Below, piece after piece: positions 1-14,015 of a DNA stretch of 64,000 nucleotides. The stretch is from a virus (Duplodnaviria > Caudoviricetes). The translations under genes were made by a program, and so were the position numbers. The notes under the pieces are model-generated. The model did not search any database. It was not told the DNA's origin and saw only the letters and a program-made list of their open reading frames with translations. The stretch lies in the IMG/VR virus record IMGVR_UViG_3300044898_000031, positions 1 through 64,000 of that record; one strand, given 5' to 3'. Each line of letters opens with the position of its first letter. The stretch's first letter is position 1.

Positions 1-20
1 AGTTTATTCGGGTCTATCAT
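1..20 (-). CDS. Start of next gene (MIDPNKL...), truncated by window edge
   Basis: ATG at 20-18 overlaps the TGA of the upstream glycosyltransferase (ATGA coupling). Confidence 0.4.
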
Positions 21-991
21 AACAGTTCAAGGATTGAATTATGGCGCAGTTGATTGATGTTGGAAAGGAGTAAATTTTCTTTGATGTGTTCCCACGACCT
101 CCTGTTAAAGTCTGAAAGTAAACCGTAGTTTTCGTTTAAACCAGCCTGTAGCTCGCTGATATTAATGCAGTGATTGTTAAATTCAGGTAAATCTGTGTTA
201 CCAAAAAAAGCCGCTCCTGCATAAGTGGCTTCCATCCATGAAATATTCGACTTGCACTTATTAAACTCATTATTGGCTAATGGGAAAATCATCACGTTTG
301 GATTATAGTCCAACAGGGATTCAAAATACTGCAACGTGTCAACTGGGTCTTTCCGAATATAATTATTACCGCATCTCATCTCCAAATAAGTAAAACAATG
401 CCCCCAGAAATTAAATGTCCAGTTCTGATTTGAATTGATAATGTCTATTAGCTGATGTGCTCGCTCATACAAATCTTCTTCATGGGTTGTTCCTCCACGC
501 CATAACACATATTTAGTATTTGTATTAAATGATTTTTTTTCTGCTACTGGGAAAAGATAATCATTATGAGCGTTGGGAATAACAACCGTATTTTGATTAA
601 ATTTATAATAAGCGTTCTTTACACCCTCTGTTGTCACCCACACCGCGTCTGCCATTCTAAGACATTTCAGTATGTTAATCTTCATATCCTGATAAAACCA
701 AAAGGTAGGGTTATACTGGTTAACCTGAAACAGATTATCATCATAGTCTATGATTATTTTACAGTTAGCCCGATTTGCCAACATTATCATATTCACATGG
801 TCATTGTTGCAGGGGCGGTGCATGATTAAAACAGCACCAGCTAAATACGTAGACCAGTTGAAATCTGTTAAATGAGATATATTTATAATCTCGTAATCCT
901 CATTGCCTAAATACTGTAGTACGCCGCCGCAACGGTAAAAACTGGTATTGTCAGCCTCCATAGGGGCAAAATAGTAGACTTTTTTCTTCAT
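17..991 (-). CDS. Glycosyltransferase, GT-B-like phage family
   Basis: FYRC...IIIDYDDNLF, ADAVWVTT, VIPNA, WRGG and KSNISWMEATYAG motifs. Confidence 0.7.
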   Translation of the reverse strand: MKKKVYYFAPMEADNTSFYRCGGVLQYLGNEDYEIINISHLTDFNWSTYLAGAVLIMHRPCNNDHVNMIMLANRANCKIIIDYDDNLFQVNQYNPTFWFYQDMKINILKCLRMADAVWVTTEGVKNAYYKFNQNTVVIPNAHNDYLFPVAEKKSFNTNTKYVLWRGGTTHEEDLYERAHQLIDIINSNQNWTFNFWGHCFTYLEMRCGNNYIRKDPVDTLQYFESLLDYNPNVMIFPLANNEFNKCKSNISWMEATYAGAAFFGNTDLPEFNNHCINISELQAGLNENYGLLSDFNRRSWEHIKENLLLSNINQLRHNSILELL

Positions 992-1191
992 ATCTTAAAG
1001 TAATCCCGTAGCCAAAATGAAGCAATGAATGCAAATAAATTACGACTATTAAGAGGGCTACGGGAATTTTTTTGATTTCTTACTATCATAATTTATTTGC
1101 TGAAACAAACATACCAAAAAAAATTGTTGGTTTTTCGCAGTTACATTTACAACCAATTTACGGGAATATAAACTTTTAAAAAAAAGAAAAA

Positions 1192-1440
1192 ATGGCTATT
1201 TTAAAAAGCGTCAATGTAATGCGTGGCCCGGGTTCCAACGCAAATGCTCCTTATCCAGCGTCCTATATAGCAACGCTTGTTTCAGAAGACATGAAGTACC
1301 ATGCTATAACTGGTGATATACCGGGTGCAAACTCTAAAATCACTGTTACAGTTCAGAATGGAAGAACCCTTAATCGCAGGGATGTTTACTATGTAAACCA
1401 AACTGTTGCTCAACTCGACCTGCTAATTATAGCTGGTTAA
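1192..1440 (+). CDS. Hypothetical 82-aa beta-rich protein
   Basis: A-rich initiation region; TACATTTA (-7-like) at 1142-1149; converges on 1437. Confidence 0.55.
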   Translation: MAILKSVNVMRGPGSNANAPYPASYIATLVSEDMKYHAITGDIPGANSKITVTVQNGRTLNRRDVYYVNQTVAQLDLLIIAG

Positions 1441-1790
1441 GCCTGTAGTACCTCAACAGGGGTTATTTCAGGAAATTCAAGGATTAGCTGGAAAGGATTA
1501 AAAAACCTTCCGGCTTTTTTTGTTTGATGAATAATGGTCATCGGTACTACAATGCAGTTCGGTTCTGCACGTTTCATCCAAAAGTTAAGATTTGGGGGTG
1601 GCATATCCCTGATGGCGGTAAAGCACTCTGTAGGCGTGAAGCGCCTATTGTTACGATAAACTATAGCCGCCTGTTCGCACGCTTGCTGATAAACATGGGT
1701 GCAAAGGTCAATCAAATAAATACGGCGCTCATCCTCATTTTTCCAGTAGGGATGAGTGAACATATCATCTATTGTTCCTGCTATGGTCAT
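1437..1790 (-). CDS. Hypothetical protein
   Basis: ATGA-coupled to the upstream small ORF. Confidence 0.6.
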   Translation of the reverse strand: MTIAGTIDDMFTHPYWKNEDERRIYLIDLCTHVYQQACEQAAIVYRNNRRFTPTECFTAIRDMPPPNLNFWMKRAEPNCIVVPMTIIHQTKKAGRFFNPFQLILEFPEITPVEVLQA

Positions 1791-1936
1791 TTACCTTTTA
1801 CTTTCAATAAATTTTTGTTTGCCTTTTTTGCTTTTGAACTTGCCTTTCTTGAGGCATTTGCCAATATTTCTCCTGCGTCTTTTTGGGAATAGCCACCTTT
1901 TTTGGCTATAGATGATTGAGCCGCTTTAAATCCCAT
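1787..1936 (-). CDS. Small basic 49-aa protein (below ORF-track cutoff)
   Basis: MGFKAAQSSIAKKGGYSQKDAGEILANASRKASSKAKKANKNLLKVKGK; ATGA overlap downstream. Confidence 0.7.
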   Translation of the reverse strand: MGFKAAQSSIAKKGGYSQKDAGEILANASRKASSKAKKANKNLLKVKGK

Positions 1937-1940
1937 TGAT

Positions 1941-2516
1941 TTATGTTGTTTCATAGTTTATTTCATATAACCCGCTTATATTATTAAATATCACTAATCC
2001 TGTTTTAAAAAAATAAAGACCACACCGCTCTAATGATTTATGAGCCATACTGTGAGTAGTGCTGTTTTTAAATACATGCAAATTATCCATTTCGCAATTT
2101 TTATTATCCAAATCTATATGATGAACATGCTCATCTTTTTTTAACGGTCGGCCTATTTTTTCAGATGCAACTTTTCTATATATCAAACGATTAGATTCTG
2201 ATTTATATTCTCTCTTCCAATTATTAAGTTTTGAATATCTTAAAATTGTATTTCTTGAAATATTAAATTCATCTGCTATTTTATGTACTTTTTTATATCC
2301 AAACCTATATTCTTCCTCAACATATTTTATTATTTCAGGGTCAATAGAAGTAGGATTCCCATGTGTTTTAATCCTTAATACACCTGCGCACTTATAACTA
2401 CAAGTTATCTGTAAGCCATTCGGTTTATTTCTTATTCTATATGGGGCAACAAAAAAAGATTTGCTACATATAGGACATATAACTTCAACTTTATGATTTC
2501 CCCTTCTATTTACCAT
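1941..2516 (-). CDS. HNH homing endonuclease with N-terminal zinc finger/HTH
   Basis: CPICSK...CSYKC; KIGRPLKKDEHVHHIDLDNKNCEMDNL...HSMAH. Confidence 0.8.
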   Translation of the reverse strand: MVNRRGNHKVEVICPICSKSFFVAPYRIRNKPNGLQITCSYKCAGVLRIKTHGNPTSIDPEIIKYVEEEYRFGYKKVHKIADEFNISRNTILRYSKLNNWKREYKSESNRLIYRKVASEKIGRPLKKDEHVHHIDLDNKNCEMDNLHVFKNSTTHSMAHKSLERCGLYFFKTGLVIFNNISGLYEINYETT

Positions 2517-2546
2517 TGTGCAATATAAATAAAATTATTGCACAAT
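2515..2546. promoter_or_regulatory. 11-bp perfect inverted repeat over HNH promoter and start codon
   Basis: ATTGTGCAATA-N10-TATTGCACAAT. Confidence 0.6.
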
Positions 2547-2593
2547 CAAAAGTGTACATAACTTATTGTTTTTTTTGTATAAAATTAAATTTT

Positions 2594-3262
2594 TTATTTT
2601 GATATATCCAAATCAAATGAGTAATAAATTTTATGTGAGGTAATTTCCTTGTTAAAAATATCTTCGTTTATAGCTATAAAATCCTGCTTACTTTCTTCTC
2701 CATCCCATGCTGTCCTTGAAAAGTTATGTCTGCTGCCACTATCTTTGTCTAAGTCCCATGAATAAATATAATCTTCCCACCCATTTACGCTGACGTACCA
2801 TGATGGCGTAAATCCTGCACGGTGTATTCTCCATGAGTACCCCGCATGTTCATAGCCATACTTTACATACGCTGCATTGATATAGCCGACTTTTTCAATC
2901 ACATTTCTTGTCAGGAATATAAAACAACCCGTACCTGTTTGATAAGTGTCTATTGTTCTTCCATTTTGTATCAGTTTATTGTGGTCAGGGTGACACAATA
3001 CGAAATGTTCTATACCTGTTTTTTTGCTGGCATTTATGAAAAAGTCAGCCCATCCCTCTTTAATCGGGAAAGTATCATCATCAAACAGAAATATGTACTG
3101 GCAATCATTATCATAAAAGAACTTTATCAGACTGTTTTTGTCTTTGGCAATAGATATTTGGTCTGAATTACACCTGAAAATAGAGTTCTTGGGTCGAACA
3201 AGGTCGAGCCTTTTATACCAATCGCTATTTGTTGAGGTGACCCCTATTCCTATCTTGTCCAT
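2594..3262 (-). CDS. Glycosyltransferase, GT-A/GT2-like
   Basis: IGIGVT...YIFLFDDDTFP...VGY...YGYEH motifs. Confidence 0.75.
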   Translation of the reverse strand: MDKIGIGVTSTNSDWYKRLDLVRPKNSIFRCNSDQISIAKDKNSLIKFFYDNDCQYIFLFDDDTFPIKEGWADFFINASKKTGIEHFVLCHPDHNKLIQNGRTIDTYQTGTGCFIFLTRNVIEKVGYINAAYVKYGYEHAGYSWRIHRAGFTPSWYVSVNGWEDYIYSWDLDKDSGSRHNFSRTAWDGEESKQDFIAINEDIFNKEITSHKIYYSFDLDISK

Positions 3263-3894
3263 ACAGCTACTCTTTTATCAATATCTGCTTCACCGCGTAA
3301 AGCCCAGTTAGCCTTGTCCTGTTCTATGATTGATTCTTTGTCAGGTACGATGTTGACTGACTGACTGCCTCCATTATAATGGTTCGCTATAAGCCCGGCT
3401 TTGACTACTGTCTGATAACCCAATCTGCGAAGCACTTCATATGTAAAATAATCTCCCCACCAAATTTTAATATAGTCGTCAGGAATAGGGAATACAATTT
3501 CTGCCATTTCACGATTCAGGTGAATAAATACTCCGGGTGTACCCTCTGTCACTACCACATCCTCGATATGACTGCCGTCAGTTGGGATGCAGATTTGAGA
3601 TTGGTCAAGTTTTTTACTCCATCCCGGCTGCATGATAAGGTCACTATTCATGATGATGAGCGTATCGTAATCTGATTCAAGAAAATAATATATGGACTGA
3701 TTCCATGCAAAGTTTACATATTCGTTCTTGTCGTTTTCAATAACAGCTATATGTTCCCGTAGCAACACCAGTTTTGTAAGATCGTCAGCATTATTATCAA
3801 TCACTAAAACATCTGCTTCGCCAACAACACTATCAATAGCCATTTTAGTATGCTCTGCACCGCTTATAACAGGGATAGCGACTAATATTTTCAT
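3250..3894 (-). CDS. Glycosyltransferase family 2-like
   Basis: VAIPV, VLVIDNN, VNFAWNQ, IMNSDL, WWGD motifs. Confidence 0.8.
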   Translation of the reverse strand: MKILVAIPVISGAEHTKMAIDSVVGEADVLVIDNNADDLTKLVLLREHIAVIENDKNEYVNFAWNQSIYYFLESDYDTLIIMNSDLIMQPGWSKKLDQSQICIPTDGSHIEDVVVTEGTPGVFIHLNREMAEIVFPIPDDYIKIWWGDYFTYEVLRRLGYQTVVKAGLIANHYNGGSQSVNIVPDKESIIEQDKANWALRGEADIDKRVAVWTR

Positions 3895-4463
3895 ACTATG
3901 CGCCTTAACACTAAAAGACCATTATTAAACTCAAGAAGCAATTCTTGTATCCATTCAGGATGAGAAGACAAAAAAGGATTTAATGCATCCCAAAGACCCC
4001 TACCACAAGATAACTCTGCCGATATTCCGGGGTAGTTTATTTCTCCAATATGACCGTATGTAACTACATCATGAAATGCCATAAATTTTTTTGCTTTACC
4101 AGCATGCCTTTCTAATTCACGTTCCAATTGTGTAGCGGTGTGGTACGTGTCGAACCATAGCATATCCGTTTCCTCAATATCAGCCTCTAAAACATCCTGT
4201 AGCCTGAATTCAAAATCAATTCCAGCGTCTTTAGCCAACTGTTCCGCTTCATCCACTTCCGGGTATCTGCCAATATCATAGCTAACCAAACGCTTTGGAT
4301 TTGCTGCTAAAAAAGCGTAGGTGCTCGTAGGGTTACGAACGCCCATTTCAGTGCAATGAGCACACTGTTCAGCGTAGGATTTGATGTACGGCAGTAACTG
4401 ATAGATGTCGGATGTGGTTGCGCATTTTTCTTCGTACTTGTCAAGTATAGGTTGTAAGTTCAT
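3891..4463 (-). CDS. Class I SAM-dependent methyltransferase (Methyltransf_24-like)
   Basis: EMGVR...SYDI, LWFDTYH, FHD and NNGLLVL motifs. Confidence 0.75.
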   Translation of the reverse strand: MNLQPILDKYEEKCATTSDIYQLLPYIKSYAEQCAHCTEMGVRNPTSTYAFLAANPKRLVSYDIGRYPEVDEAEQLAKDAGIDFEFRLQDVLEADIEETDMLWFDTYHTATQLERELERHAGKAKKFMAFHDVVTYGHIGEINYPGISAELSCGRGLWDALNPFLSSHPEWIQELLLEFNNGLLVLRRIV

Positions 4464-4945
4464 ATATGGTTTTTTATAAAGTTGTCAATATCTTCACTCA
4501 AAAGTAAGTGTGCATTAGCTAATATTCTTTCATCGTCCCAATTCCACCATGCTATTTGCTCTAACTGTAATATCTGTCCTACTGGAAAGCGAAAATAATA
4601 TTGACAATCGGTTACTACAGTGTATGGCGGCACGTTGCGCCTAACAACCGTTCCCGCACCAATTACAGCCCCGTTGCCAATAGTAACACCCGACATAATT
4701 ATACAATTTTCACCTATGGTTACGTCATTGCCAACAACAATGTCGCCACGATTTTTAATATTACCCGGCAATCTTCCGTCCAGTTTATTCAATGTAAATG
4801 TGGTCACATTTTTTATATTATGATTAAAACCGCAGTCAAATACGTTATTCTGCGCGATACTGGAATAATTACCAACTATAACATCGTTCATATTTCCCCT
4901 TAAAATAGGGTCACACGCATAAGAGTGTCTGCCAAGCTTAATCAT
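4460..4945 (-). CDS. Hexapeptide-repeat O-acetyltransferase (CatB/Vat-like fold)
   Basis: IVVGNDVTIGENCIIMSGVTIGNGAVIGAG; IAWWNW. Confidence 0.85.
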   Translation of the reverse strand: MIKLGRHSYACDPILRGNMNDVIVGNYSSIAQNNVFDCGFNHNIKNVTTFTLNKLDGRLPGNIKNRGDIVVGNDVTIGENCIIMSGVTIGNGAVIGAGTVVRRNVPPYTVVTDCQYYFRFPVGQILQLEQIAWWNWDDERILANAHLLLSEDIDNFIKNHI

Positions 4946-5480
4946 ATTGGTGTTTAATTTGTTCTACTTCTTCTGGTGTAAGGTATTTCCACGGAGAATG
5001 AAAACCGAGACTGCCTAAACTAAATTCTGTTTCCACACTGAACTTTTTTGCCGTTTCCTTATCAGGTAAATTGCCATTTAGTGCCTGTAACCCATTACAG
5101 AAGAACATATCCTCATTGCCTCCGTTATAAGGAAAATTGTCAATCACTTTTAGCATAGCATCCCGTTTTCTGAGGCTTAAACCACCGTTCATTGCCGGAA
5201 ATGGGATATGGTAAAGAGGCGCTCCAATAAAATCCCATTCTAAAAATTCCTCAATACCGTGACGTAAAAGCAAACTATCATGCTGAAAAATAAGTACATG
5301 GTCACACATTGCTTCCCAAAAGCCTCTTGAGGCAAGTAGTTCGTTATATTCCTGCATAGTGGTCATCGGCTGACTGATGTGTACCATCGACCAATCATCA
5401 GGTAAAAACTTAGCGTGTACATCCATTATCTTGCTCACGTCAAACCTGTTTTCAATAATAACTGCGCACTTGGTTATCAT
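4938..5480 (-). CDS. DUF5672-like, GT-A-like protein (start revised to 5480)
   Basis: LIFQHDS...DFIGAP...NGGLSLRK...NEDMFF; ATGA overlap. Confidence 0.75.
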   Translation of the reverse strand: MITKCAVIIENRFDVSKIMDVHAKFLPDDWSMVHISQPMTTMQEYNELLASRGFWEAMCDHVLIFQHDSLLLRHGIEEFLEWDFIGAPLYHIPFPAMNGGLSLRKRDAMLKVIDNFPYNGGNEDMFFCNGLQALNGNLPDKETAKKFSVETEFSLGSLGFHSPWKYLTPEEVEQIKHQYD

Positions 5481-6235
5481 GGTATAATATCTGATATAAA
5501 TAAGCATGCTTTATAAGACCAATGAAAACCGCTTGCGCTTTTATTATATCCTATAACAGAAAATATTCTTTTTCTTTTTATACCGGTTAAACTTTCTAAT
5601 TCCCATATATTTTTAAAGGAATTTATTAATTTATGGGTTTTTTTATCAAACTGATATATTCTTTTATGAGGCTTACTTGCTTGCCATATTGCTTGTCCAA
5701 GACGCATTTTAATACGGGATTCATCAGTATGTGATTTCCGCCACATATTATGCTTTTCTTTTTTTAACCCCTTTTTAAGATTGGTTTCTTTAGAATACTT
5801 TTTGCCGATTTGTCTCTGTCTATTAGCTTCTACAACGTCTTTCGACATTTTTTTTCCTAAAAGCCACGGTTTTGGGACTCCCTTCGTTCTTTCAGATCGT
5901 TTTCTTTTAGATTCTTCGGAATGTTTAAAACCAAGCATGCTGTTTGCAGTAGGACTTAAGTTGTAGCGAGGCTTAAAGAAATCAATCCATTTTTGTTCTG
6001 GAATAGTTAATTCAAATCTTGTTTTTGCCAATGGCAATTCTTCTATAATAGAAAATTCAAAATTCTCTTCACCGTGTTTATTCCATGAATTTTGAAGAAT
6101 TCTTGAATGATGCTTATTTGCTCTTAATAAATTTTTATGCTTCCAAATTCTACTATTTAAATTTACGGCTGACCCAATGTAAAAATCATTGCTTACTTTA
6201 TTTATAATGGCATAAATACAAGCTGTATCTATCAT
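5477..6235 (-). CDS. GIY-YIG homing endonuclease with NUMOD3-type repeats
   Basis: CIYAIINKVSNDFYIGSA; LGFKHSEESKRK and KSHTDESRIKM repeats. Confidence 0.9.
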   Translation of the reverse strand: MIDTACIYAIINKVSNDFYIGSAVNLNSRIWKHKNLLRANKHHSRILQNSWNKHGEENFEFSIIEELPLAKTRFELTIPEQKWIDFFKPRYNLSPTANSMLGFKHSEESKRKRSERTKGVPKPWLLGKKMSKDVVEANRQRQIGKKYSKETNLKKGLKKEKHNMWRKSHTDESRIKMRLGQAIWQASKPHKRIYQFDKKTHKLINSFKNIWELESLTGIKRKRIFSVIGYNKSASGFHWSYKACLFISDIIP

Positions 6236-6972
6236 TCTATAACCTCCTTATTAAAATTGGGATGATTATGCAATATTTTTGGTAATAAATTTTTATCAAA
6301 GTGAGTCGCTGACCAAAGCGACTCAGCTACAAGATGCAACCCTCCTTCAACTACATCTCCCGGTTTCCAATTCAAATACATATCTAACCAACCATCACGT
6401 ATCTCCGATTTATGACCGTGAACTTGTAATTTATAGCGCATCACCGCTTCACTTTGTGCAGTTGAAAAATGGTATACTTTACATGGGACTACGCCCTCTC
6501 CTCCACTGTTATGCAAATTAATATAGCGTATAGGGGTAAAACTGTCGTGACAGGCGTAATTAAACGACTTCCAAAAATTTATAAAACCGCCAAAGCCAAT
6601 ATACCGCTTGTCTGTTTTCGTACATAGGTCTAATGCAATAGATAAATCTATTGGGTCAAAAATCTCATCAGCGTCAAAAGCCAAAATCCCATCATATCCG
6701 TCTGCAAAATTTAAAATGTAATTACGGTGGTCGCCCTCTGTACCTGCATTTATTTTATACCATTCCACTTTTGGGCTCGCGGCTATCGCAATATCATGAA
6801 GTTCTGTTTCAGTCTCAGGGCAAATAGCATCCGTTCCAAATCCGTAACTGGGTTCATTAGTGTATAGGATAATGATACGCTCCACAAACGGTTCAACACT
6901 TTTTATGGCATATGACAGGTATTCTTTCCCGTATAAAAGCGGACAATAGGCGATTATGCGTGTGTTTTCCAT
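6232..6972 (-). CDS. Glycosyltransferase, GT-A-like
   Basis: YLSYAIKSV...DADE (DxD) motif. Confidence 0.7.
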   Translation of the reverse strand: MENTRIIAYCPLLYGKEYLSYAIKSVEPFVERIIILYTNEPSYGFGTDAICPETETELHDIAIAASPKVEWYKINAGTEGDHRNYILNFADGYDGILAFDADEIFDPIDLSIALDLCTKTDKRYIGFGGFINFWKSFNYACHDSFTPIRYINLHNSGGEGVVPCKVYHFSTAQSEAVMRYKLQVHGHKSEIRDGWLDMYLNWKPGDVVEGGLHLVAESLWSATHFDKNLLPKILHNHPNFNKEVIE

Positions 6973-7886
6973 AGAGATATTATATTGCTTGCCATGTGTG
7001 AAAAAGTATAGTTGTTTAAAGCCAATTGATGACCGTTTTCTCCAAAAATCATTAATAATTCTGCATCATTAATGATTTTATCAATTTCTGATTTTAACTC
7101 ATCAAGTGTATTCCAATAGTCTACCCTGCACAAGTTTCTTGAAAAATCAATTTCAATCCCTTTATATTGATGGCTTAACACACAGATACCACTCCCAAGC
7201 ATACGGAACATCCGATCACTGGTATACCTGTCGTAATCAAAGTGTGACAGGTTAATCCCGATCTTGGCGTTCCTGTAAATACAGGCCTCCCCATATTGGT
7301 CACCCATGTAATTACCGCTCTCAAATCCTCCCCACCCTGAACCGTACACACCGAAGTTATCCCCATAATGCATCTTTAGAAAAGATACCATTTGCTGCCT
7401 CATTTCAGATAAGGGAAAACCACCGCAGTTGTTCCCCATAAAAACTATTTCAGGTGAGGGGTATTTTTCACCATCGGGCTTATAAATTTCGGGATCATAT
7501 CCTATCTGTAAAAATTCTGACTGATAGCCCAACGCTCTCATTGTGGCTACATCTTCCTCATTTGAAAAGCAGGTTAAATCCACTCCCCAAGATTCCATAT
7601 CAATATAAAATTGCGGCAATGGACTTCTGCAATCTCCTGACCAGTTGATGGTATACGCGCCCGTTGCCTTTATCGCCTCAATAGAGGCTTGTGTGATGCC
7701 AGTGGCTTGTATTTGAATAAATACCAAGTCAGGGATAAAATAAGTCAATACATCGGCTATTCTGTGGTTTAAATCAGGTTCAGCAACTGATATTTCTAAA
7801 TATCCGTCACAAACCGTTCGCATCGCTTTAGTAAATCCGTTATCTTCGCCAACAGATGCCATGCACCCGATATAAAGTATATTCAT
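6954..7886 (-). CDS. Glycosyltransferase, CgeB/Glyco_trans_1_2-like (start revised to 7886)
   Basis: QIGYDPEIY, VFMGN, YRNAKIGINL, SDRMFRMLGSG motifs. Confidence 0.8.
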   Translation of the reverse strand: MNILYIGCMASVGEDNGFTKAMRTVCDGYLEISVAEPDLNHRIADVLTYFIPDLVFIQIQATGITQASIEAIKATGAYTINWSGDCRSPLPQFYIDMESWGVDLTCFSNEEDVATMRALGYQSEFLQIGYDPEIYKPDGEKYPSPEIVFMGNNCGGFPLSEMRQQMVSFLKMHYGDNFGVYGSGWGGFESGNYMGDQYGEACIYRNAKIGINLSHFDYDRYTSDRMFRMLGSGICVLSHQYKGIEIDFSRNLCRVDYWNTLDELKSEIDKIINDAELLMIFGENGHQLALNNYTFSHMASNIISLWKTHA

Positions 7887-8530
7887 AATGATGTAGGTTG
7901 AACAAGTAAATATGGGTGTGGTATCGGTTCTGTCCCATGCCATGCCCTGTGGTCGCCTTTATGCAGGTGATAGGTCTTCACCGTCCAGCTTGGGTTAGAT
8001 ATATTATACCCGGCTTTCTGAATCTCAAAAGCTAAACGGTTGTCAACACCGGGAGTTCCAATTTTAAAATTATAATTCCCCGGCTTTATACGGCCTCTAA
8101 AGCACCACGTATCCTGACTATCCGACCTATCCATAAAGGTTGCATCCTTAACCATTATATTACCAAACTTGACCATGTTATCGCTATTCATTTCCCACCT
8201 TGTCAATGCCCAGCAATCATTTTCAGTAAGCAATAATTTTATTATATCTATACCCTCCTCGTCAAAATAAATATCACTGTTTGCCACAATATTTATATCA
8301 TCATACCCCGTAACCTCATTTACCCAGTCAAATAACTGCTGCATTGTAGGACGGCTGTCTATCCATCTCATTGAGACATTTTTTTCAGGCATCGAAACAT
8401 TATGTGGCTTCATCTCATTCATAGCATAAATCATATCAATAAACTTACATGATTTGTTAATCAAATGAACATGATACAGTTCGTTTTCCCTGTCTGCATC
8501 ATAGTAATAAGTTGTGAATAGATTTACCAT
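7883..8530 (-). CDS. Conserved viral protein, possibly GT-A-like
   Basis: ANSDIYFD, WALTRW, SQDTWCF, GVDNRLA, YHLH motifs. Confidence 0.55.
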   Translation of the reverse strand: MVNLFTTYYYDADRENELYHVHLINKSCKFIDMIYAMNEMKPHNVSMPEKNVSMRWIDSRPTMQQLFDWVNEVTGYDDINIVANSDIYFDEEGIDIIKLLLTENDCWALTRWEMNSDNMVKFGNIMVKDATFMDRSDSQDTWCFRGRIKPGNYNFKIGTPGVDNRLAFEIQKAGYNISNPSWTVKTYHLHKGDHRAWHGTEPIPHPYLLVQPTSL

Positions 8531-8542
8531 ATAAAAAAGTTA

Positions 8543-8642
8543 TTCCCGGCAACCAAAAATTGAAATGCAGTGGCGAACGAACAGATGAAAATCTGGTGTA
8601 CCGGGAAATGTCTTTGCTTAATTATTTTCATCGTTCGTTCGC
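8543..8642 (-). ncRNA. Structured 5' leader (candidate H-type pseudoknot) of glycan operon
   Basis: 19-bp stem 8573-8592/8624-8642; loop segment 8594-8607 pairs with 8543-8555. Confidence 0.55.
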
Positions 8643-8647
8643 TTTGA

Positions 8648-8679
8648 TAAAGGTAAAAATCATAAGTGACATTACCAAA
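8648..8679 (-). promoter_or_regulatory. Bacteroidota primary-sigma promoter
   Basis: TTTG-N20-TACCTTTA. Confidence 0.6.
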
Positions 8680-8681
8680 TA

Positions 8682-8822
8682 CTAATTTTCTATTTTATTA
8701 AATTTGCCTATCCATTCTTCTTTTAATTCAGCAAGCGTTGATATATCAAAATTTACATCCCTTTGAACAGCGTCCAAATACGATTCCAATAATTCAAAAT
8801 ACAATTGTTTAAACTTTTCCAT
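8682..8822 (-). CDS. Small hypothetical protein (46 aa)
   Basis: MEKFKQLYFELLESYLDAVQRD...; A-rich initiation region. Confidence 0.4.
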   Translation of the reverse strand: MEKFKQLYFELLESYLDAVQRDVNFDISTLAELKEEWIGKFNKIEN

Positions 8823-8837
8823 GTTATTTTTAAAGAT

Positions 8838-8865
8838 AAAAAAACGGGTTCATTTCTGATCCCGT
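8838..8865 (-). terminator. Intrinsic terminator
   Basis: ACGGG...CCCGT stem followed by T run on minus strand. Confidence 0.5.
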
Positions 8866-8923
8866 CGGTGATGTTTTCTTTTCCTCCTGCCCTCAAAGAT
8901 GTCAATTTCTATAATCTCTATCT

Positions 8924-9175
8924 CTATGCAGCCGGGGTTGCGTTTGGGAGTAACAAGCTGATACCAGTATGGTTTTCAGGGTCACTGGCTAAAGCGTTAT
9001 TGATCGCTGTTGCCTGTTCGGCTGTCAAGGCTTCCAGTTGATTAATGAAGCTTACGTTTGCCAGTTCTGCCTGTGCCTCAGTAAGTGCTTCCTGATCGGT
9101 TTGTAAGGCTGTTGCCTCCTGCTGTACCTGTGCAGTAAGTGTGTCTACTTTGTTTTGAAGTGCGGTGCTATCCAT
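8924..9175 (-). CDS. Acidic Ala/Gln-rich coiled-coil protein
   Basis: Heptad-like composition; TACATTTG at 9190-9197 upstream. Confidence 0.6.
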   Translation of the reverse strand: MDSTALQNKVDTLTAQVQQEATALQTDQEALTEAQAELANVSFINQLEALTAEQATAINNALASDPENHTGISLLLPNATPAA

Positions 9176-9276
9176 GATTTTTTTTATTTCAAATGTAATT
9201 AGTTTTTACTTTAAAGTTATATCAATGATTTTTTTTAAATTAAACCGATTTTTAAGCCCGTAAATCAATTATATAT

Positions 9277-9522
9277 TCAAAGTTGATACATACTACCACC
9301 GTATGGGTTAAAGTGGCACTCGTGGTCTGTAATGAAGCCATACGGTATATTCAGCTTCCATTCACTTATCCGTTTAAACTGGTTCATATTATCAGAGAAT
9401 ATAAATTGTTCATTTGAATCAATCAGTTCCTTTACAATTTCAGTAACATCCCCGGCAGAAGTAATTACTGAAAACCATTTACCCGTTGGTACTGACTTTA
9501 ATTTTTTTATTGTTTCTATCAT
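9277..9522 (-). CDS. Hypothetical protein
   Basis: Directly follows primase-helicase in the operon. Confidence 0.55.
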   Translation of the reverse strand: MIETIKKLKSVPTGKWFSVITSAGDVTEIVKELIDSNEQFIFSDNMNQFKRISEWKLNIPYGFITDHECHFNPYGGSMYQL

Positions 9523-9525
9523 GGT

Positions 9526-11334
9526 TTAAAATGCTAATTCATTATTTTGTGAATTAATTGGGTCAAAATTGTAGTTTGGTAATAATTGCGTTGAAAACTC
9601 TATTTCTGATTGTGGCTCATCCGGCATTAGCCAATTTGCATTATCGTAATTATCCAATGAATTAAAACGGCTATTGTTCACATTATACCTAACTTCTACC
9701 ATCCCCTGATTTCCCAAATGGTTATACTTCATTTTCTGAACATGTATCTCACTCAATTCAGTTTCGTAATTCCTGTAAAATGTTATGCCAATGTCTGGTT
9801 TATTGAACCAGTTGCTTGATCCTGATATATCGTAAAGGTTTGGTATTTCAAATTGCCCTGTCTTTAAATTTTTCCTGATTTTTGTAGGATGAGCAATGAC
9901 TATTGAAAATATGCCGTGGCGCTGGCTGAACCTGATTATTTTATCCAGTTGTTTTGAAATGTAATTTGTTTCAGTGTCGCCTTTATCCTGATTATGCTCT
10001 AATTTATTCCAAGGGTCAAGCAAAAATCCCCTAACACCGTACTTAACGACTAAACTTTTTGCTTTTGATAAAATATTATCCAGTGTCACGTCATCATCTT
10101 CCGGCTCTATAAAAAAGAAGTGATCGTTTATAAATTCTTTTGCTACTAACTTTTCTTTATCGGTGAATCTAACGAATTTACGTACCCTTTTACCTATTAA
10201 ACATTCACATATAGTAACTAAAAACACAGCTAATGGCTTATGTTCAGGTGTAAACATTGCCCACTTATACCCGTGATTGACCGACAATGCACACATAATC
10301 TGCAAAGCAAATGGTGACTTTCCGTGATTTGGTATCCCTGTTAATACCATGAGGTGACCCGGATAAAATGAAACTAAATTATCAAACTCTTTCATATACC
10401 CGGTAGTATCTCCACGTGGCAATCCGTTTTCCATATAATTTTCAACCTCATCCCAAACATATTTGGCAGTAACTATACCAGAAATCGGAAATTCAATCAA
10501 ATTAGGCTCTCTAATCAATTCTTTTAATTCAGACGACCCTTTTGCTACCAATACTTCATTTGCGTCTTTAAACGATCCGAAATCAACCTTAAAACACCTT
10601 TCATACCCCACCCTACGTGCGAGTTCTTCCCTAAGTGCTATTCCCGGCTCATCATTATCCGTTGCCAATATTATTTTTGTCTTGTTATTGAAATAGTCCA
10701 CACAGTTATCCAAGTACTCCAAGTTGCAATTCCCTTTTGATGCGCCATTTGGGACTGAAATAACTTCTTTGATACCTGCTTCTGAAAATGAAAGTTTATC
10801 AATCTCTCCCTCTACGATCACACACCAGTCGCTTTCTTTAATGTCATCTAATCCATAAAAAACAAGTTCAGCATCTTTAACCATTTTGAAATGCTTTTTG
10901 CCGTCCCTGTATTTTACGTTTACCAACTGCCCGTCTCTGAAATAATTAAACTGAATAGTGTTTTCTTCTTTTTTTGTTTGAGGCATGTAAACCTTTCCCT
11001 CTGATAATTTAGCGTCAGACAATACTTTTTGAGATATACCGCGCTTAAAAAACCATTGCACTACTGCATCTGATAATTCGGTATTATTGACGTAAACAGG
11101 ACGGATATACTCTTTCACTTTTGGGATATATTCTTTCAATTCAAACACCTTACCTCTGAACTCGCAACCGGGATTATGGCAGTTGTAAACTCCATCGTCT
11201 AAATCGATACTAAGGCAAGGATCGTTTTTGTGTTTTCGTGAAGCACTACACTTAGGGCAGATAACTTTATCTGATCCTGCATTTCTTCTTGTAATTATAC
11301 CAAGTTCGGCAAACATTTCTTTTATAGCTTTCAT
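9526..11334 (-). CDS. Primase-helicase (Zn finger + TOPRIM + DnaB-like; T7 gp4/Twinkle type)
   Basis: CPKC...CHNPGC; IVEGEIDKLS; ATDNDEPG; Walker A GIPNHGKS; LLDPWNKL; AHPTK. Confidence 0.93.
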   Translation of the reverse strand: MKAIKEMFAELGIITRRNAGSDKVICPKCSASRKHKNDPCLSIDLDDGVYNCHNPGCEFRGKVFELKEYIPKVKEYIRPVYVNNTELSDAVVQWFFKRGISQKVLSDAKLSEGKVYMPQTKKEENTIQFNYFRDGQLVNVKYRDGKKHFKMVKDAELVFYGLDDIKESDWCVIVEGEIDKLSFSEAGIKEVISVPNGASKGNCNLEYLDNCVDYFNNKTKIILATDNDEPGIALREELARRVGYERCFKVDFGSFKDANEVLVAKGSSELKELIREPNLIEFPISGIVTAKYVWDEVENYMENGLPRGDTTGYMKEFDNLVSFYPGHLMVLTGIPNHGKSPFALQIMCALSVNHGYKWAMFTPEHKPLAVFLVTICECLIGKRVRKFVRFTDKEKLVAKEFINDHFFFIEPEDDDVTLDNILSKAKSLVVKYGVRGFLLDPWNKLEHNQDKGDTETNYISKQLDKIIRFSQRHGIFSIVIAHPTKIRKNLKTGQFEIPNLYDISGSSNWFNKPDIGITFYRNYETELSEIHVQKMKYNHLGNQGMVEVRYNVNNSRFNSLDNYDNANWLMPDEPQSEIEFSTQLLPNYNFDPINSQNNELAF

Positions 11335-12029
11335 TAGTGTACAAGTGTGCGTTTAGGTTGTTCTTTAATTTTATTTTCATCTTTAAACCATACTGATTGC
11401 ATTTTCTGTTTCCAACTTATGACAGGATTTCCCTTACTATCTTTCCACCCTGCAACATCGTAATAATTAAATGCTCTTTCGCCAACTTTACCCTCATATC
11501 CATTGTCTATAAAATACTGCCTGACATCAGAAATTAACGGCACTAATAACTCTCTACTTTTCTTTACTTTACTCTCCTCTACTCTACTTTGTGGGTTTAC
11601 GAGTTCTGACTTTTCACATTGGTGTAGTTTAAGGATACCTAAATCAGTTAAAAGTTCCCTTAAACCAAGTAAAGTTATACAATTATTGGTTCTTTTGTTA
11701 TAAGCGTCCTGAATTGAATCAACCAATTGTTGGCACCAAATTATTTTATGTTCCCAAAGTTCTCGGTCAAAAGAACCCATTTTTGTAACATCAGAAATAA
11801 TAGATAAAAGGACTTCTTCTGACACATTGCATTTAGCCGCCAAGTACATTATTTCTTCTTCTTGGTTAAGGTTTAAAAAATGGTTATCAGTGGCACATAA
11901 TTTCTCTAAAATCTTATGCCATGTTGAATATCCATCATTGCCATACTTTTTCTCAATGAAGAACATTTTTTTGCCATCGCCAACCATGTGTGGATAATAG
12001 TCAACTGTGTTTCTTTGTGGTCTTGCCAT
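11334..12029 (-). CDS. Replication initiator-like protein (DUF4373/Lin1244-type N-terminus)
   Basis: MARPQRNTVDYYPH...KYGNDGY; C-terminal YYDVAGWKDSKG..SWKQ. Confidence 0.7.
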   Translation of the reverse strand: MARPQRNTVDYYPHMVGDGKKMFFIEKKYGNDGYSTWHKILEKLCATDNHFLNLNQEEEIMYLAAKCNVSEEVLLSIISDVTKMGSFDRELWEHKIIWCQQLVDSIQDAYNKRTNNCITLLGLRELLTDLGILKLHQCEKSELVNPQSRVEESKVKKSRELLVPLISDVRQYFIDNGYEGKVGERAFNYYDVAGWKDSKGNPVISWKQKMQSVWFKDENKIKEQPKRTLVH

Positions 12030-12547
12030 TATATGCCACGATTAAAATGTTCAAACTCAAACCTTGCTTCGTTAGCTGAAATAATAGCCTCTGTAGTATC
12101 CTCGAAGTACTCCTTAAACCATTCTATTTCTTTACTTGATTTACCTATACTTTGGTAGTATAATGGGTAGTATTTTGTATTTTTAGCAACAGGAACCACA
12201 TCCATGCAGTCGCCACCATTTCTTATTGTAGATATATGGCCATAATCAGGAGTGCCTATAAATAGTAGAATTGGCACATCTTCGAATAATTCAGAAAGTT
12301 CAATACATTTTTTTCTTTCTTTGGGTAGTAGTATATCTGGCTTTACCTCTCCAAATGTCTTTAGTTTTGGAAAATAAAAATCAGGTAAATATTTGCCGGA
12401 TGGTAGGTTATATCCTTCATATTCATACTCCCAATCCCATCTTAAACAATCTAATAATACAGCCCACCTTGCTTCAAGTCGGCTTCTAAATAATCTTCCG
12501 GCATATCTTGTTTCTATAGCCTTAATCTTAGGATTAAATTCAGACAT
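12029..12547 (-). CDS. PD-(D/E)xK-type nuclease-like phage protein
   Basis: IKAIETRYAGRLFRSRLEARWA...YLPDFY...EVK. Confidence 0.7.
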   Translation of the reverse strand: MSEFNPKIKAIETRYAGRLFRSRLEARWAVLLDCLRWDWEYEYEGYNLPSGKYLPDFYFPKLKTFGEVKPDILLPKERKKCIELSELFEDVPILLFIGTPDYGHISTIRNGGDCMDVVPVAKNTKYYPLYYQSIGKSSKEIEWFKEYFEDTTEAIISANEARFEFEHFNRGI

Positions 12548-12602
12548 AATTTAATTAATTTAGGTAAGTTTTGATTTTTTAAACAGATAACAGCCAACAA
12601 AT

Positions 12603-12794
12603 TCACGCTACCTTTGCGATAGGGAATATGACATGCTTAAGCAGTTCTTTTAGCTGATCTTCTTTTTCAAGGGAAAGTGAGCGTTCACCGCGCATAACCA
12701 TAGAGAAGTATTGGGGATGAATTTCGAGTTGTTTTGCCAGATGTTTATACTTGAATCCGCTGGCTTTTACTTTTTCTTTTGTGATATTGTTCAT
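12603..12794 (-). CDS. XRE-like HTH regulator
   Basis: YKHLAKQLEIHPQYFSMVMRG. Confidence 0.7.
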   Translation of the reverse strand: MNNITKEKVKASGFKYKHLAKQLEIHPQYFSMVMRGERSLSLEKEDQLKELLKHVIFPIAKVA

Positions 12795-12798
12795 ACTG

Positions 12799-12829
12799 TA
12801 AACATACGTGTATTGATTTATTAAAGCAA
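12799..12829 (-). promoter_or_regulatory. Promoter giving probable leaderless HTH transcript
   Basis: TTG-N20-TATGTTTA, 4 nt before ATG. Confidence 0.55.
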
Positions 12830-12896
12830 GTATAAATACCTGTTTTTGCCTTTTTTAAAACAAATACTTACTAACATTGTATGTGGAGAAAAATAG

Positions 12897-12937
12897 GAAA
12901 AAAATAAAGCCGCACAGATTACCACGTCTGTACGGCT
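12897..12937 (-). terminator. Intrinsic terminator
   Basis: AGCCGTACAGA...TCTGTGCGGCT plus T-rich tail. Confidence 0.65.
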
Positions 12938-12992
12938 AAAACCAAAAATTACTTTGAAAAGTTACCGTTGGTAACGGTAGTAAAAATTTTTA

Positions 12993-13418
12993 TTAAAATA
13001 TTTCTTTTTGCTGTCCTGGATCGTTGATTACTACCCCTAAAAATTCTGCTGCCCATTGTTGTATTTCTGCAATAAAATCGTTAAATTCAACTGTTGACAA
13101 TGAAGCGGTTGACTGAATGATCGTGATAAACTGCCCTTCCTCATTGGCCACATCTTTTTTAAGGAATTTCGCCTTTAGCATCTCATGTATCGTTTCATGG
13201 TCGAGCATATGCCTTTCAAAGCCCATATTGATTAACCCGTCCTTAACTTCATTCAATACTATACCGTGATAAAATGCATTTTGGTTGAGGCTACGCTGCT
13301 TTTTTGCTTTAGCAATAGTAACTATCCATCGACCATCATTAAGAGATTGTAGCGCCTCATACAATGGCCTATTGCCTTTTAAGACACCCTCTTGTTTGTG
13401 TAGGTTAAACTGTTTCAT
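12993..13418 (-). CDS. NinB/YbcN-like recombination accessory protein
   Basis: KQRSLNQNAFYHG...STASLSTVEFNDFIAEIQQWA. Confidence 0.7.
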   Translation of the reverse strand: MKQFNLHKQEGVLKGNRPLYEALQSLNDGRWIVTIAKAKKQRSLNQNAFYHGIVLNEVKDGLINMGFERHMLDHETIHEMLKAKFLKKDVANEEGQFITIIQSTASLSTVEFNDFIAEIQQWAAEFLGVVINDPGQQKEIF

Positions 13419-13785
13419 CTGTTTCGTAACCTATTCTATCCCTGAAACCATACCATTCAGACCGCCTCATAACTGCTTTTCCAAACGTATCAAGGCAGTC
13501 GTTTAGGTAATTAGCTAAAATAAAATCAGGTGTATTACTACCATTTTCTTTAGAGTATCTGTTTATCAACGCTTCAAGTTCTTTTATGAAAGTATTGCCA
13601 TCCCGTTCTTCTATCTGCGGGTATGGATTATAGGGTTCGTTGATAGCTGTGCTTAACTCACCGATTGGCTTTATATGTTCATGGCTTTTCGCGCTAAGTT
13701 GTGTTTTTTCATCAACAGCCCCGGCCAAGAAAACATAATCTGTAGCTGTGTTATGTAAAATAGTTTTTCCTTTTATAATTTTCAT
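13405..13785 (-). CDS. Hypothetical phage protein
   Basis: LINRYSKENGSNTPDFILANYL motif, common in phages. Confidence 0.65.
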   Translation of the reverse strand: MKIIKGKTILHNTATDYVFLAGAVDEKTQLSAKSHEHIKPIGELSTAINEPYNPYPQIEERDGNTFIKELEALINRYSKENGSNTPDFILANYLNDCLDTFGKAVMRRSEWYGFRDRIGYETDETV

Positions 13786-13814
13786 AATTTTATGTGTTAA
13801 AATATATTTAATTA

Positions 13815-14015
13815 CTATTTAACTGGCTTAAATAAGCCATATCCATCACTTTTTAATAAGTCAAATCTTTTTAAGATTATTTTATTGGTATTGTTGTAAA
13901 ACGCCAATAATGAATTTGGTCTGTCTTTACTTGGCTTAAAAATATCGGTAGAAGTGTCTATATCATCCAATAATTGCCAAAGATTTTCAGCTATTTTTTT
14001 GTAATCTTTTTCCAT
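13815..14015 (-). CDS. Hypothetical protein
   Basis: ORF in operon. Confidence 0.55.
   Translation of the reverse strand: MEKDYKKIAENLWQLLDDIDTSTDIFKPSKDRPNSLLAFYNNTNKIILKRFDLLKSDGYGLFKPVK

Follow-up and report, generated by a model that had tools for sequence, protein, structure and literature searches.

A glycosyltransferase-rich operon beside packaging genes in a soil phage genome and its possible role in virion glycosylation

Described viral glycosylation systems and the present locus

To our knowledge, glycosylation of a viral particle by enzymes that the virus itself encodes has been shown only for a few mycobacteriophages, the chloroviruses and other giant viruses. In this study, we analysed a 64,000-nucleotide stretch of phage DNA, here called the window (bases 1 to 64000 of the 76,528-bp IMG/VR virus record IMGVR_UViG_3300044898_000031), in which a preliminary description made from the sequence had proposed a glycan-building locus. 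The locus occupies positions 17 to 8530 on the minus strand and forms a single translationally coupled operon with seven glycosyltransferase (GT)-like genes, a methyltransferase gene and a hexapeptide acetyltransferase gene. The open reading frames (ORFs) were found where the preliminary description had placed them, all on the minus strand, and the stop/start overlaps that it had mentioned measure 4 to 19 nucleotides (nt). That these enzymes assemble host nucleotide sugars into a glycan, probably a methylated and acetylated one, is well supported. From genomic position and analogy, we further consider it rather likely that the locus serves the cytoplasmic glycosylation of the phage's own virion proteins, probably its head proteins. 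Such a mode of action would be of a known kind, i.e., virus-encoded virion glycosylation, carried out by an enzyme set that is largely unrelated to the known ones and uncharacterised.

Passages in two reports (PMC12619734 and PMC11256854, citing Freeman et al. 2023) state that capsid and tail-tube subunits of mycobacteriophages bear glycans. In phage Corndog, gp35 to gp38 comprise a methyltransferase and three GTs and are encoded just upstream of the major head protein, gp41, a linkage to head genes comparable to that of the present cassette. Like the present locus, the mycobacteriophage systems (Corndog gp35-gp38, the Che8-type Cheoctovirus GTs and Myrna gp234/gp238) consist of soluble GTs and a methyltransferase, with no nucleotide-sugar genes, and soluble phage GTs that are linked to structural genes, with or without a methyltransferase, were also what was found here. 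However, these systems belong to phages of another host phylum and have two to three GTs, versus seven in the present, uncultured phage. Homology of the GT sequences to those of Che8, Corndog and Myrna was likewise not found, except for one accessory GT, g04 (positions 2594 to 3262, minus strand). This sole gene of the locus with relatives in phages of known virion glycosylation was aligned by tblastn, at approximately 30% identity, with the N-terminal GT-A domains of Myrna gp234 and of gp96 of the Cheoctovirus Ruby, as well as with a GT cluster of Phapecoctavirus. The four genes that make up what is referred to below as the core (g12, g11, g10 and g08), and also g01, g05, g06 and g07, had no detectable similarity to Corndog, Myrna or Ruby.

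The closest functional parallel to the cassette is that of the chloroviruses, in which soluble cytoplasmic GTs and S-adenosylmethionine (SAM)-dependent methyltransferases equip the major capsid protein with a methylated glycan (PMC9614988). The enzymes of chlorovirus PBCV-1 (A064R, A111/114R and A061L) are three-domain proteins, to which a fusion of g12, g11 and g10 (P0172, see below) is comparable. The model of g08 superposed on domain D1 of A064R (2p72) with a template modelling (TM) score of 0.51 by query and 0.47 by target, and the predicted fold of g06 is like that of the methyltransferase domains fused to GT90 in giant viruses. However, the chloroviruses are eukaryotic viruses with an N-linked glycan, the resemblance to the present cassette is at the level of the fold only (11 to 12% identity), and chloroviruses encode nucleotide-sugar enzymes whereas the present phage encodes none.

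Phage gene clusters for the glycosylation of 5-hydroxymethylcytosine (5hmC) or 5-hydroxymethyluracil (5hmU) in DNA (Pyle et al., 10.1101/2023.12.21.572611; T4 alpha- and beta-glucosyltransferases) also contain GT-A and GT-B enzymes, sometimes in series and sometimes near replication genes, as here. Those clusters are defined by a neighbouring thymidylate synthase (ThyS)-like hydroxymethylase or by a C5-methyltransferase (C5-MT) together with 5mYOX, which are absent from the present phage and from nearly all cassette-bearing records. A four-GT cluster of Phapecoctavirus (gp013 to gp016 of Escherichia phage anhysbys) contains homologues of g01 (28% identity) and g04 (28%) beside a primase/helicase gene, and is without homologues of g12, g11, g10 and g08. 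In anhysbys itself (L007; NC_052656.1, positions 10294 to 13438), four adjacent annotated GTs lie next to primase/helicase and DNA polymerase genes, and a literature search for phAPEC8 and glycosyltransferase returned nothing on the function of this cluster. Direct cytoplasmic glycosylation of a protein by a GT2-type enzyme is exemplified by GmaR, the flagellin O-GlcNAc transferase of Listeria monocytogenes (PDB 22ao). GmaR was the sole solved protein matched by the g10 family profile, with a marginal score (E 1e-3) over residues 6 to 123, i.e., the N-terminal half only, and its anti-repressor part has no counterpart here.

The conserved core and its genomic neighbourhood

A search with the g12 family alignment retrieved 344 relatives from IMG/VR, of which the best 80, with their flanks, were compared by tblastn using every protein of the locus as query; records in IMG/VR can be fragmentary. 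Among these 80 loci, g11 was present in 65, g10 in 62 and g08 in 63, and the genes followed one of two orders, either g12-g11-g10-g08, often with a methyltransferase gene next, or g11-g10-g08-g12. The remaining genes behaved as accessories: the methyltransferase was present in 23 loci, the acetyltransferase in 7, g05 in 6, g04 in 2 and g01 in 1. As judged from these sequence comparisons, g12-g11-g10-g08 is a conserved syntenic core. Fusions were also found, with g12 and g11 in one ORF in four loci (L015, L052, L014 and L029), an 809-amino-acid (aa) protein (P0172) that joins g12, g11 and g10 (identities of 35%, 38% and 51%; E values of 1e-37, 4e-59 and 1e-74), and a further protein (P0230) in which g10 is joined to a g11-like domain. 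Because of this synteny and these fusions, the core would appear to act as one multi-enzyme unit.

The g10 family comprised 159 clusters at E≤1e-30 in a search of 1.84 billion representatives. Among 50,697 GenBank phage records, only six had any core match, with g10 found in none, g08 in one megaphage and g12 in four. The locus as a whole was unmatched in a megablast search of GenBank phages. When single genomes of 185,579 species were scanned with sequence patterns, 3 matches were obtained, all of them contigs of metagenome-assembled genomes (MAGs) with the whole cassette, and 2 of these MAGs were Bacteroidota. What emerges is a conserved four-enzyme cassette, without a cultured or characterised member, in hundreds of uncultured phages.

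The core proteins were assigned to GT folds by models, profiles and conserved motifs. For g12 (positions 7883 to 8530, minus strand), a GT of an unannotated family with 51 homologues, no Pfam domain was found. Its AlphaFold2 (AF2) model, with a predicted local distance difference test (pLDDT) score of 91, matched GT-A enzymes in Foldseek at E 5e-6 and was superposed by VIA on CHSY3-CHPF with a Z score of 15.4 (root mean square deviation of 3.2 over 178 aligned residues), followed by WrtF (14.3) and SpsA (13.4); over residues 1 to 207 the Z scores ranged from 15.4 to 13.1 and included B4GALNT1. The modelled fold of g12 is thus unambiguously GT-A, and N84-S-D86 and H188-L-H190 are invariant in the family alignment. 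For g08 (positions 4938 to 5480, minus strand), which matched DUF5672 (Pfam PF18922, 5e-28), the AF2 model (pLDDT of 96) is a compact GT-A-like fold, for which the Foldseek matches in the PDB were Skp1 alpha-GalT, B3GNT2, PBCV-1 A64R and glycogenin (E 2e-5 to 2e-4, TM 0.44 to 0.59). The BFVD matches of g08 were DUF5672 domains of many giant viruses, often within multidomain GTs of 430 to 740 aa, and Q66-H-D68-S, N98-G-G and N122-E-D124 are conserved in the family. For both proteins, the preliminary description had raised GT-A folds as a possibility, which the superposition of the models on solved GT-A enzymes substantiates. No relation between g08 and g12 was detected by hhalign, and a literature search on DUF5672 returned nothing relevant to the family.

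The other two core genes are compatible with their earlier descriptions as GT-B-like and GT-A-like, here from sequence and profile matches. g11 (positions 6954 to 7886, minus strand) matched Glyco_trans_1_2 (Pfam PF13524, 7e-11; CgeB-like), and its family profile matched the C-terminal halves of GT-B enzymes in the PDB (5i45 and TreT) at only approximately 1e-3. Its true start is at 7886, in an ATGA overlap with g12, since the family consensus starts at the same Met; the start of g08 at 5480 is also consistent with its family alignment. g10 (positions 6232 to 6972, minus strand) is a predicted GT2-like GT-A enzyme that had no Pfam match; its Atlas neighbours were viral clusters, one with PF00535 on 32% of its members, and D100-A-D102-E is invariant in the family. 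Candidate DXD-type motifs are conserved in g10 (D100-A-D102), g04 (FDDDTF), g12 (N-S-D86...D), g05 (N-S-D85) and g08 (H-D68-S). Whereas g12 and g08 superpose on solved enzymes, the GT-A assignment of g10, g05 and g04 comes from sequence and profile matches only. Single-sequence searches of the PDB with 3891-4463, 6232-6972 and 7883-8530 gave nothing usable, and profile searches of the PDB with the g12, g08 and g01 families gave no match. By our count, three of the four core families, as well as g01, are without a Pfam family, g08 corresponding to DUF5672, a family without an assigned function. A role in sugar chemistry is confirmed by the jumbo-phage contigs, where the neighbours of g11 and g12 are genes for a GDP-mannose 4,6-dehydratase, a DegT aminotransferase, a PglD-like acetyltransferase and an epimerase.

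To map the neighbourhoods, 1,495 ORFs of the 80 loci were clustered and recurrent neighbours were annotated by PHROG. Two large lineages emerged, one with 34 loci and the other with 26, and a jumbo-phage group accounted for 8 more; the others fell into three small groups and five singletons. In lineage A (34 loci), genes for the terminase large subunit (TerL), portal, head morphogenesis protein, protease and major head protein (phrog_10) precede g11-g10-g08-g12 and another GT gene, after which come the head-tail adaptor and Neck1 genes and, farther on, the tape measure gene. In lineage B (26 loci), g12-g11-g10-g08, optionally with a methyltransferase gene, is preceded by genes for a protease, a virion structural protein and a 188-aa protein and followed by those for two small proteins and the portal (phrog_11226). 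Phages of lineages A and B have genomes of 31 to 39 kb and are frequent in freshwater viromes. Lineage C contains the present phage and the loci L008 and L018; here the core, with the acetyltransferase, methyltransferase and g05 genes among others, is followed by genes for a GroES-like protein, TerL (phrog_6681) and portal (phrog_6547). The core precedes TerL (phrog_10250/979) and portal (phrog_7376) genes in lineage D (L027 and L009), and in lineage E (L012) the core with methyltransferase and g05 genes is separated by one ORF from a TerL gene (phrog_3717/2). An annotated head or packaging gene was found no more than 3 ORFs from the core in 61 of 77 loci, a raw count over annotated clusters only and without a null model, and the core lies inside or directly beside packaging and capsid genes in at least five unrelated head-module types. 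In one locus (L014), GT genes are found on both sides of the protease and major capsid protein genes.

In the present phage, this linkage runs over the ends of the record, the locus being continued by genes for the GroES-like protein (genome positions 75733 to 76503; L002:13733-14503), a 199-aa protein, endonuclease VII, TerL (72334 to 74499, phrog_6681), portal (69764 to 72298, phrog_6547) and head proteins (68589 to 69716, 67013 to 68557 and 65637 to 66767). The junction between the locus and the GroES-like and TerL genes is taken as real because in L008, the closest relative (a 73-kb record with direct terminal repeats), the primase/helicase gene, the locus and the genes for the GroES-like protein, the 199-aa protein and TerL are contiguous.

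The absence of a flippase and of a nucleotide-sugar synthase, pointed out in the preliminary description, extends to the whole genome, in which no match to Epimerase, NTP_transferase, a Wzx-type flippase (Polysacc_synt) or Bac_transf was found; the priming transferase, flippase and nucleotide-sugar synthesis genes of a self-contained cluster of the O-antigen or capsular polysaccharide type are thus lacking in the genome. On the Kyte-Doolittle scale, no 19-residue stretch of any locus ORF exceeds a hydrophobicity of 1.5, and all locus proteins are predicted to be soluble, without a membrane segment. Since the genome has no synthesis genes, host nucleotide sugars would be used, and since no locus protein has an export signal, the enzymes would act in the cytoplasm. 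In the mechanism that we propose, the four core enzymes would work as one unit on these sugars; one of them would begin the glycan on a structural protein itself, no lipid carrier, flippase or oligosaccharyltransferase being involved, and the others would extend it. The accessory enzymes, namely, the GTs g05, g04 and g01, the methyltransferase g06 and the acetyltransferase g07, would finish or diversify the chain according to lineage. The resulting glycan coat may alter the surface properties of the particle, such as its stability, stickiness or recognition. Because it is on the same strand as the late packaging and head genes and is translationally coupled, the operon would presumably be transcribed with them.

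Candidate acceptors of the glycan

Head proteins are favoured as the acceptor because at least five unrelated types of head module have the core within or next to their capsid and packaging genes. The most economical choice would be a virion protein encoded by a neighbouring gene, with a head protein as the likeliest candidate. Which molecule is modified, in what sequence the enzymes act and how the phage benefits are inferred, and the case made for the acceptor is one of guilt by association. Several points weigh against glycosylation of virion proteins. No acceptor motif, Ser/Thr-rich tail or sequon enrichment was found on the head proteins; g04 alone is homologous to an experimentally linked system, and nothing detectably similar was found in Corndog. 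One locus (L043) has its cassette genes among tail genes, and the neighbourhoods of the jumbo-phage group and of L015 and L052 are non-structural as far as they are annotated. The cassette of the present phage, like those of lineages D and E, is at a module boundary upstream of TerL, and cargo genes also gather at such boundaries. Soluble GTs that act on lipid-linked intermediates are likewise without membrane segments. Moreover, phage GTs of similar folds can act on DNA (Pyle et al., 10.1101/2023.12.21.572611).

The glycan could also be directed to the host envelope, in which case the enzymes would work at the inner membrane on undecaprenyl-linked host glycan precursors (general Bacteroidota O-glycan, lipopolysaccharide or capsule) and the product would be found on the exported, sequon-rich tail fibre or the cell surface, which we regard as unlikely. 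Cytoplasmic GTs of O-antigen and O-glycan pathways also have no membrane segments, and methylated sugars are found in Bacteroidota O-glycans. A scan for leader sequences, made with a crude hydropathy rule and not with SignalP, pointed to leader-bearing fibre proteins in the present phage, with 15 D(S/T)(A/I/L/V/M/T) sequons counted in the fibre encoded at positions 43007 to 47185. The same scan bore on the co-occurrence of the locus with signal-peptide fibres, a check suggested in the preliminary description, with a divided outcome. In lineages C, D and E, the accessory set of g05 and methyltransferase, with or without the acetyltransferase, occurs together with large proteins (G001, 59691-65410; G002, 11703-13904; G003, 5990-8878 and 8875-9756) whose leaders are of the Bacteroidota style (MKK..., ending in AQ, SQ or GQ), as in the fibre of the present phage; however, this co-occurrence is confounded by host taxon and concerns three lineages only. 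Complete or near-complete genomes of lineages A and B (G016 and G018, 100%; G008, 95%) contain the core and had no large leader-bearing protein in the scan, and the core therefore appears to be independent of exported fibres. Of the two acceptors proposed in the preliminary description, the cytoplasmic head proteins are thus the ones favoured by the head-module position, whereas the route through a lipid-linked O-glycan to the fibre is weakened by these complete genomes, although it retains some probability for the present phage and for its accessory genes. In addition, the genome encodes no priming transferase, flippase or ligase, and a location inside head modules is unexpected for envelope remodelling. 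Classical seroconversion is an ill-fitting model for soluble proteins in a phage that lacks a (tyrosine) integrase; compared with a seroconversion module (GtrABC, Oac), the locus has no membrane segments and its acetyltransferase is a soluble hexapeptide protein, the GtrA and GtrB profiles not having been searched as such.

Hypermodification of DNA, in which the GTs would add sugars to hydroxymethylated phage bases and so evade restriction, as in the T-even phages, is suggested by the position of the locus beside the primase/helicase gene, by the homologous four-GT cluster of Phapecoctavirus, which also adjoins primase/helicase and DNA polymerase genes, and by phage GT-A and GT-B enzymes of similar folds that glycosylate 5hmC (10.1101/2023.12.21.572611). 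A hydroxymethylated base is a prerequisite for DNA glycosylation and is supplied either by a ThyS-like enzyme or by the combination of a C5-MT and a TET/JBP dioxygenase (10.1101/2023.12.21.572611). However, no thymidylate-synthase-like hydroxymethylase, TET/JBP or C5-MT was found in the whole genome, no base-modifying family was found among its 53 early and replication ORFs, and no family A DNA polymerase was matched in the genome. Among 28 to 29 cassette-bearing records, ThyS was found in 1, TET/JBP in 1 and C5-MT in 3; for records at least 90% complete, the numbers were 2 of 14 for ThyS (one real, in a 361-kb provirus record, and one weak, at 17 bits), 0 of 15 for TET/JBP and 1 of 15 for C5-MT. 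Seven GTs with methylation and acetylation also exceed any described DNA glycan, the longest reported being trisaccharides. Because genes for ThyS-like enzymes, TET/JBP and C5-methylases do not co-occur with the core, we consider DNA glycosylation, an alternative that had been raised at the outset, to be highly improbable. Some other acceptor, i.e., a free or lipid-bound oligosaccharide, a small molecule or a non-virion protein of phage or host, is rather improbable as well. In favour of such an acceptor, approximately 65% of phage GT contigs have no assignable context (Pyle et al., 10.1101/2023.12.21.572611), and g07 scores best against the streptogramin and chloramphenicol acetyltransferases of the Vat/CatB xenobiotic class. 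Yet all the Vat/CatB scores are far under the curated cut-offs (92 versus 300 bits), sugar acetyltransferases of the same fold also match, and the acetyltransferase is an accessory found in 7 of 80 loci; moreover, such an acceptor would leave the consistent linkage of the core to head modules unexplained.

With glycosylation of virion proteins as the preferred reading, a broader proposal can be made, tentatively, that the core is a portable and self-contained module for glycosylating capsid proteins without a lipid carrier, which moves between unrelated head modules and has its DUF5672 part in common with giant viruses. Virions with a glycan coat would in that case be common in environmental phages and not a peculiarity of mycobacteriophages, and sugar-coated particles would be widespread in both soil and water. 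In each lineage, the coat would then be tuned by the accessory methyl- and acetyltransferases, in Bacteroidota phages possibly towards host-like methylated glycans. Such coats would bear on adsorption to mucus and particles, particle stability, grazing, immune recognition and the annotation of virome proteins, and the cassette would offer compact, soluble and lipid-independent candidate enzymes for protein glycosylation.

Accessory genes, insertions and genome context

All seven genes that had been listed as GT-like have a GT-type match or model, with differing support among the accessory ones. For g05 (positions 3250 to 3894, minus strand), the GT2 signals were weak but concordant (Pfam GT2 at 1e-3, below the cut-off; TIGR01556 at 6e-5; phrog_13126 at 2e-3); its family profile matched GT2 enzymes in the PDB at approximately 1e-2, and D33-N34 and N83-S-D85 are invariant. 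g04 matched phrog_2456 (2e-37) and phrog_1579 (3e-26) and contains the FDDDTF motif, and the GT-A-like character attributed to g04, g05 and g10 is in line with their profile matches; a search for related loci with g04 alone yielded only two, both distant. g01 (positions 17 to 991, minus strand), the last gene of the operon ahead of the GroES-like, TerL and portal genes, is a GT-like protein with a DYDDD motif that belongs to a large unannotated family (phrog_7162, 2e-23) with more than 363 homologues, none with a Pfam domain, and it has approximately 28% identity to the annotated Phapecoctavirus GTs. The GT-B fold previously given to it found no support in Pfam or the PDB, the only indication being a weak hhalign match, with a probability of 40%, to the N-terminal half of the g11 family. 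A relation of g01 to the extra GT of lineage A (cluster c4) was not detected by hhalign.

The SAM methyltransferase of the preliminary description corresponds to g06 (positions 3891 to 4463, minus strand), which had no Pfam, NCBIfam or PDB sequence match and was identified by its Atlas model. The model (predicted TM score of 0.93) matched methyltransferase clusters at TM 0.82 to 0.95, with PF13578 or PF04989 on only 13 to 33% of their members, and the fold matches included methyltransferase domains that occur in fusion with GT2 (phages) or GT90 (giant viruses). On this model, g06 would be a class I methyltransferase of the CmcI type (Methyltransf_24/RMNT_CmcI), i.e., a type of sugar O-methyltransferase. 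The gene listed as an O-acetyltransferase, g07 (positions 4460 to 4945, minus strand), encodes a left-handed beta-helix (hexapeptide) acyltransferase (Hexapep, 6e-12), for which O- and N-acetylation are indistinguishable from sequence; its profile matches were Vat/CatB-like (5e-26), WbbJ (7e-14) and NeuD/PglB/VioB (2.5e-9).

The operon region also contains two homing endonuclease genes and three small ORFs that the preliminary description had not listed. A GIY-YIG and NUMOD3 homing endonuclease (Pfam, 5e-10 and 5e-5) is encoded at positions 5477 to 6235, minus strand, between g10 and g08, and an HNH_3 and HTH_7 homing endonuclease (2.5e-5 and 6e-5, both just below the Pfam cut-off) at 1941 to 2516, minus strand, after g04. 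Because both are missing from the syntenic L008, in which g10 and g08 abut, sequence comparison identifies them as recent insertions, which have preserved translational coupling with 4-nt overlaps; these are selfish genes outside the glycan pathway. A third free-standing homing endonuclease gene (NUMOD4, HNH_3 and AP2) is found at genome positions 63906 to 64427. Of the small ORFs, g02 (positions 1437 to 1790, minus strand) encodes a 117-aa operon member without a family match that has 58% identity to a protein at the same position in L008, and another lies at 1787 to 1954. The third, an 82-aa ORF (positions 1192 to 1440, plus strand), runs antisense to the operon within the 445 bp that separate g02 from g01; its conservation in L008 at the protein level (43% identity over 67 aa, E 7e-14) suggests that it is probably a real small gene, and it had a weak hhalign match, with a probability of 18%, to a 92-aa lineage-B protein.

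The record was rated 100% complete by CheckV and has no terminal repeat; a soil metagenome, possibly its source, is the only sequencing run that contains it, and no RNA run is among those listed. The genome is organised in three blocks, namely, the replication genes followed by the glycan locus on the minus strand (from 15.6 kb down to 1), small early genes on the plus strand (16 to 37 kb) and structural genes on the minus strand (from 76.5 down to 37.4 kb). The replication genes seen were those for a primase/helicase, a Rad52-like annealase, RusA, NinB and a Lin1244-like protein, whereas the whole genome showed neither a family A DNA polymerase nor an integrase, a thymidylate synthase or a tRNA. 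The primase/helicase gene (positions 9526 to 11334), which adjoins the glycan locus, has 32 to 36% identity to counterparts in Riemerella, Cellulophaga, Tenacibaculum and Flavobacterium phages, and the host is therefore likely to be a member of the Bacteroidota. Scans for the Bacteroidota-type promoter motif, sigma-70 promoters and terminators gave results at chance level, and no Rfam family was found within positions 1 to 9600. The gene for the GroES-like protein (256 aa, with a C-terminal GroES/Cpn10 domain, 6e-6) immediately follows the glycan operon and precedes TerL; it is kept in L008, and an ORF of the same size is found at this position in L018.

Two further sugar-related arrangements were observed among the relatives. 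In L015 (L015:9911-12405), which belongs to a complete phage record of 88 kb, the gene for the g12-g11 fusion (562 aa) precedes one for a polysaccharide pyruvyl transferase. In a 266-kb IMG/VR record (L025:7253-17542) and seven similar jumbo-phage contigs, the relatives of g11 and g12 belong to a larger sugar island that, besides the genes named above for these contigs, includes a methyltransferase fusion and an epimerase/reductase and, by its sequences, looks like a perosamine-type nucleotide-sugar pathway.

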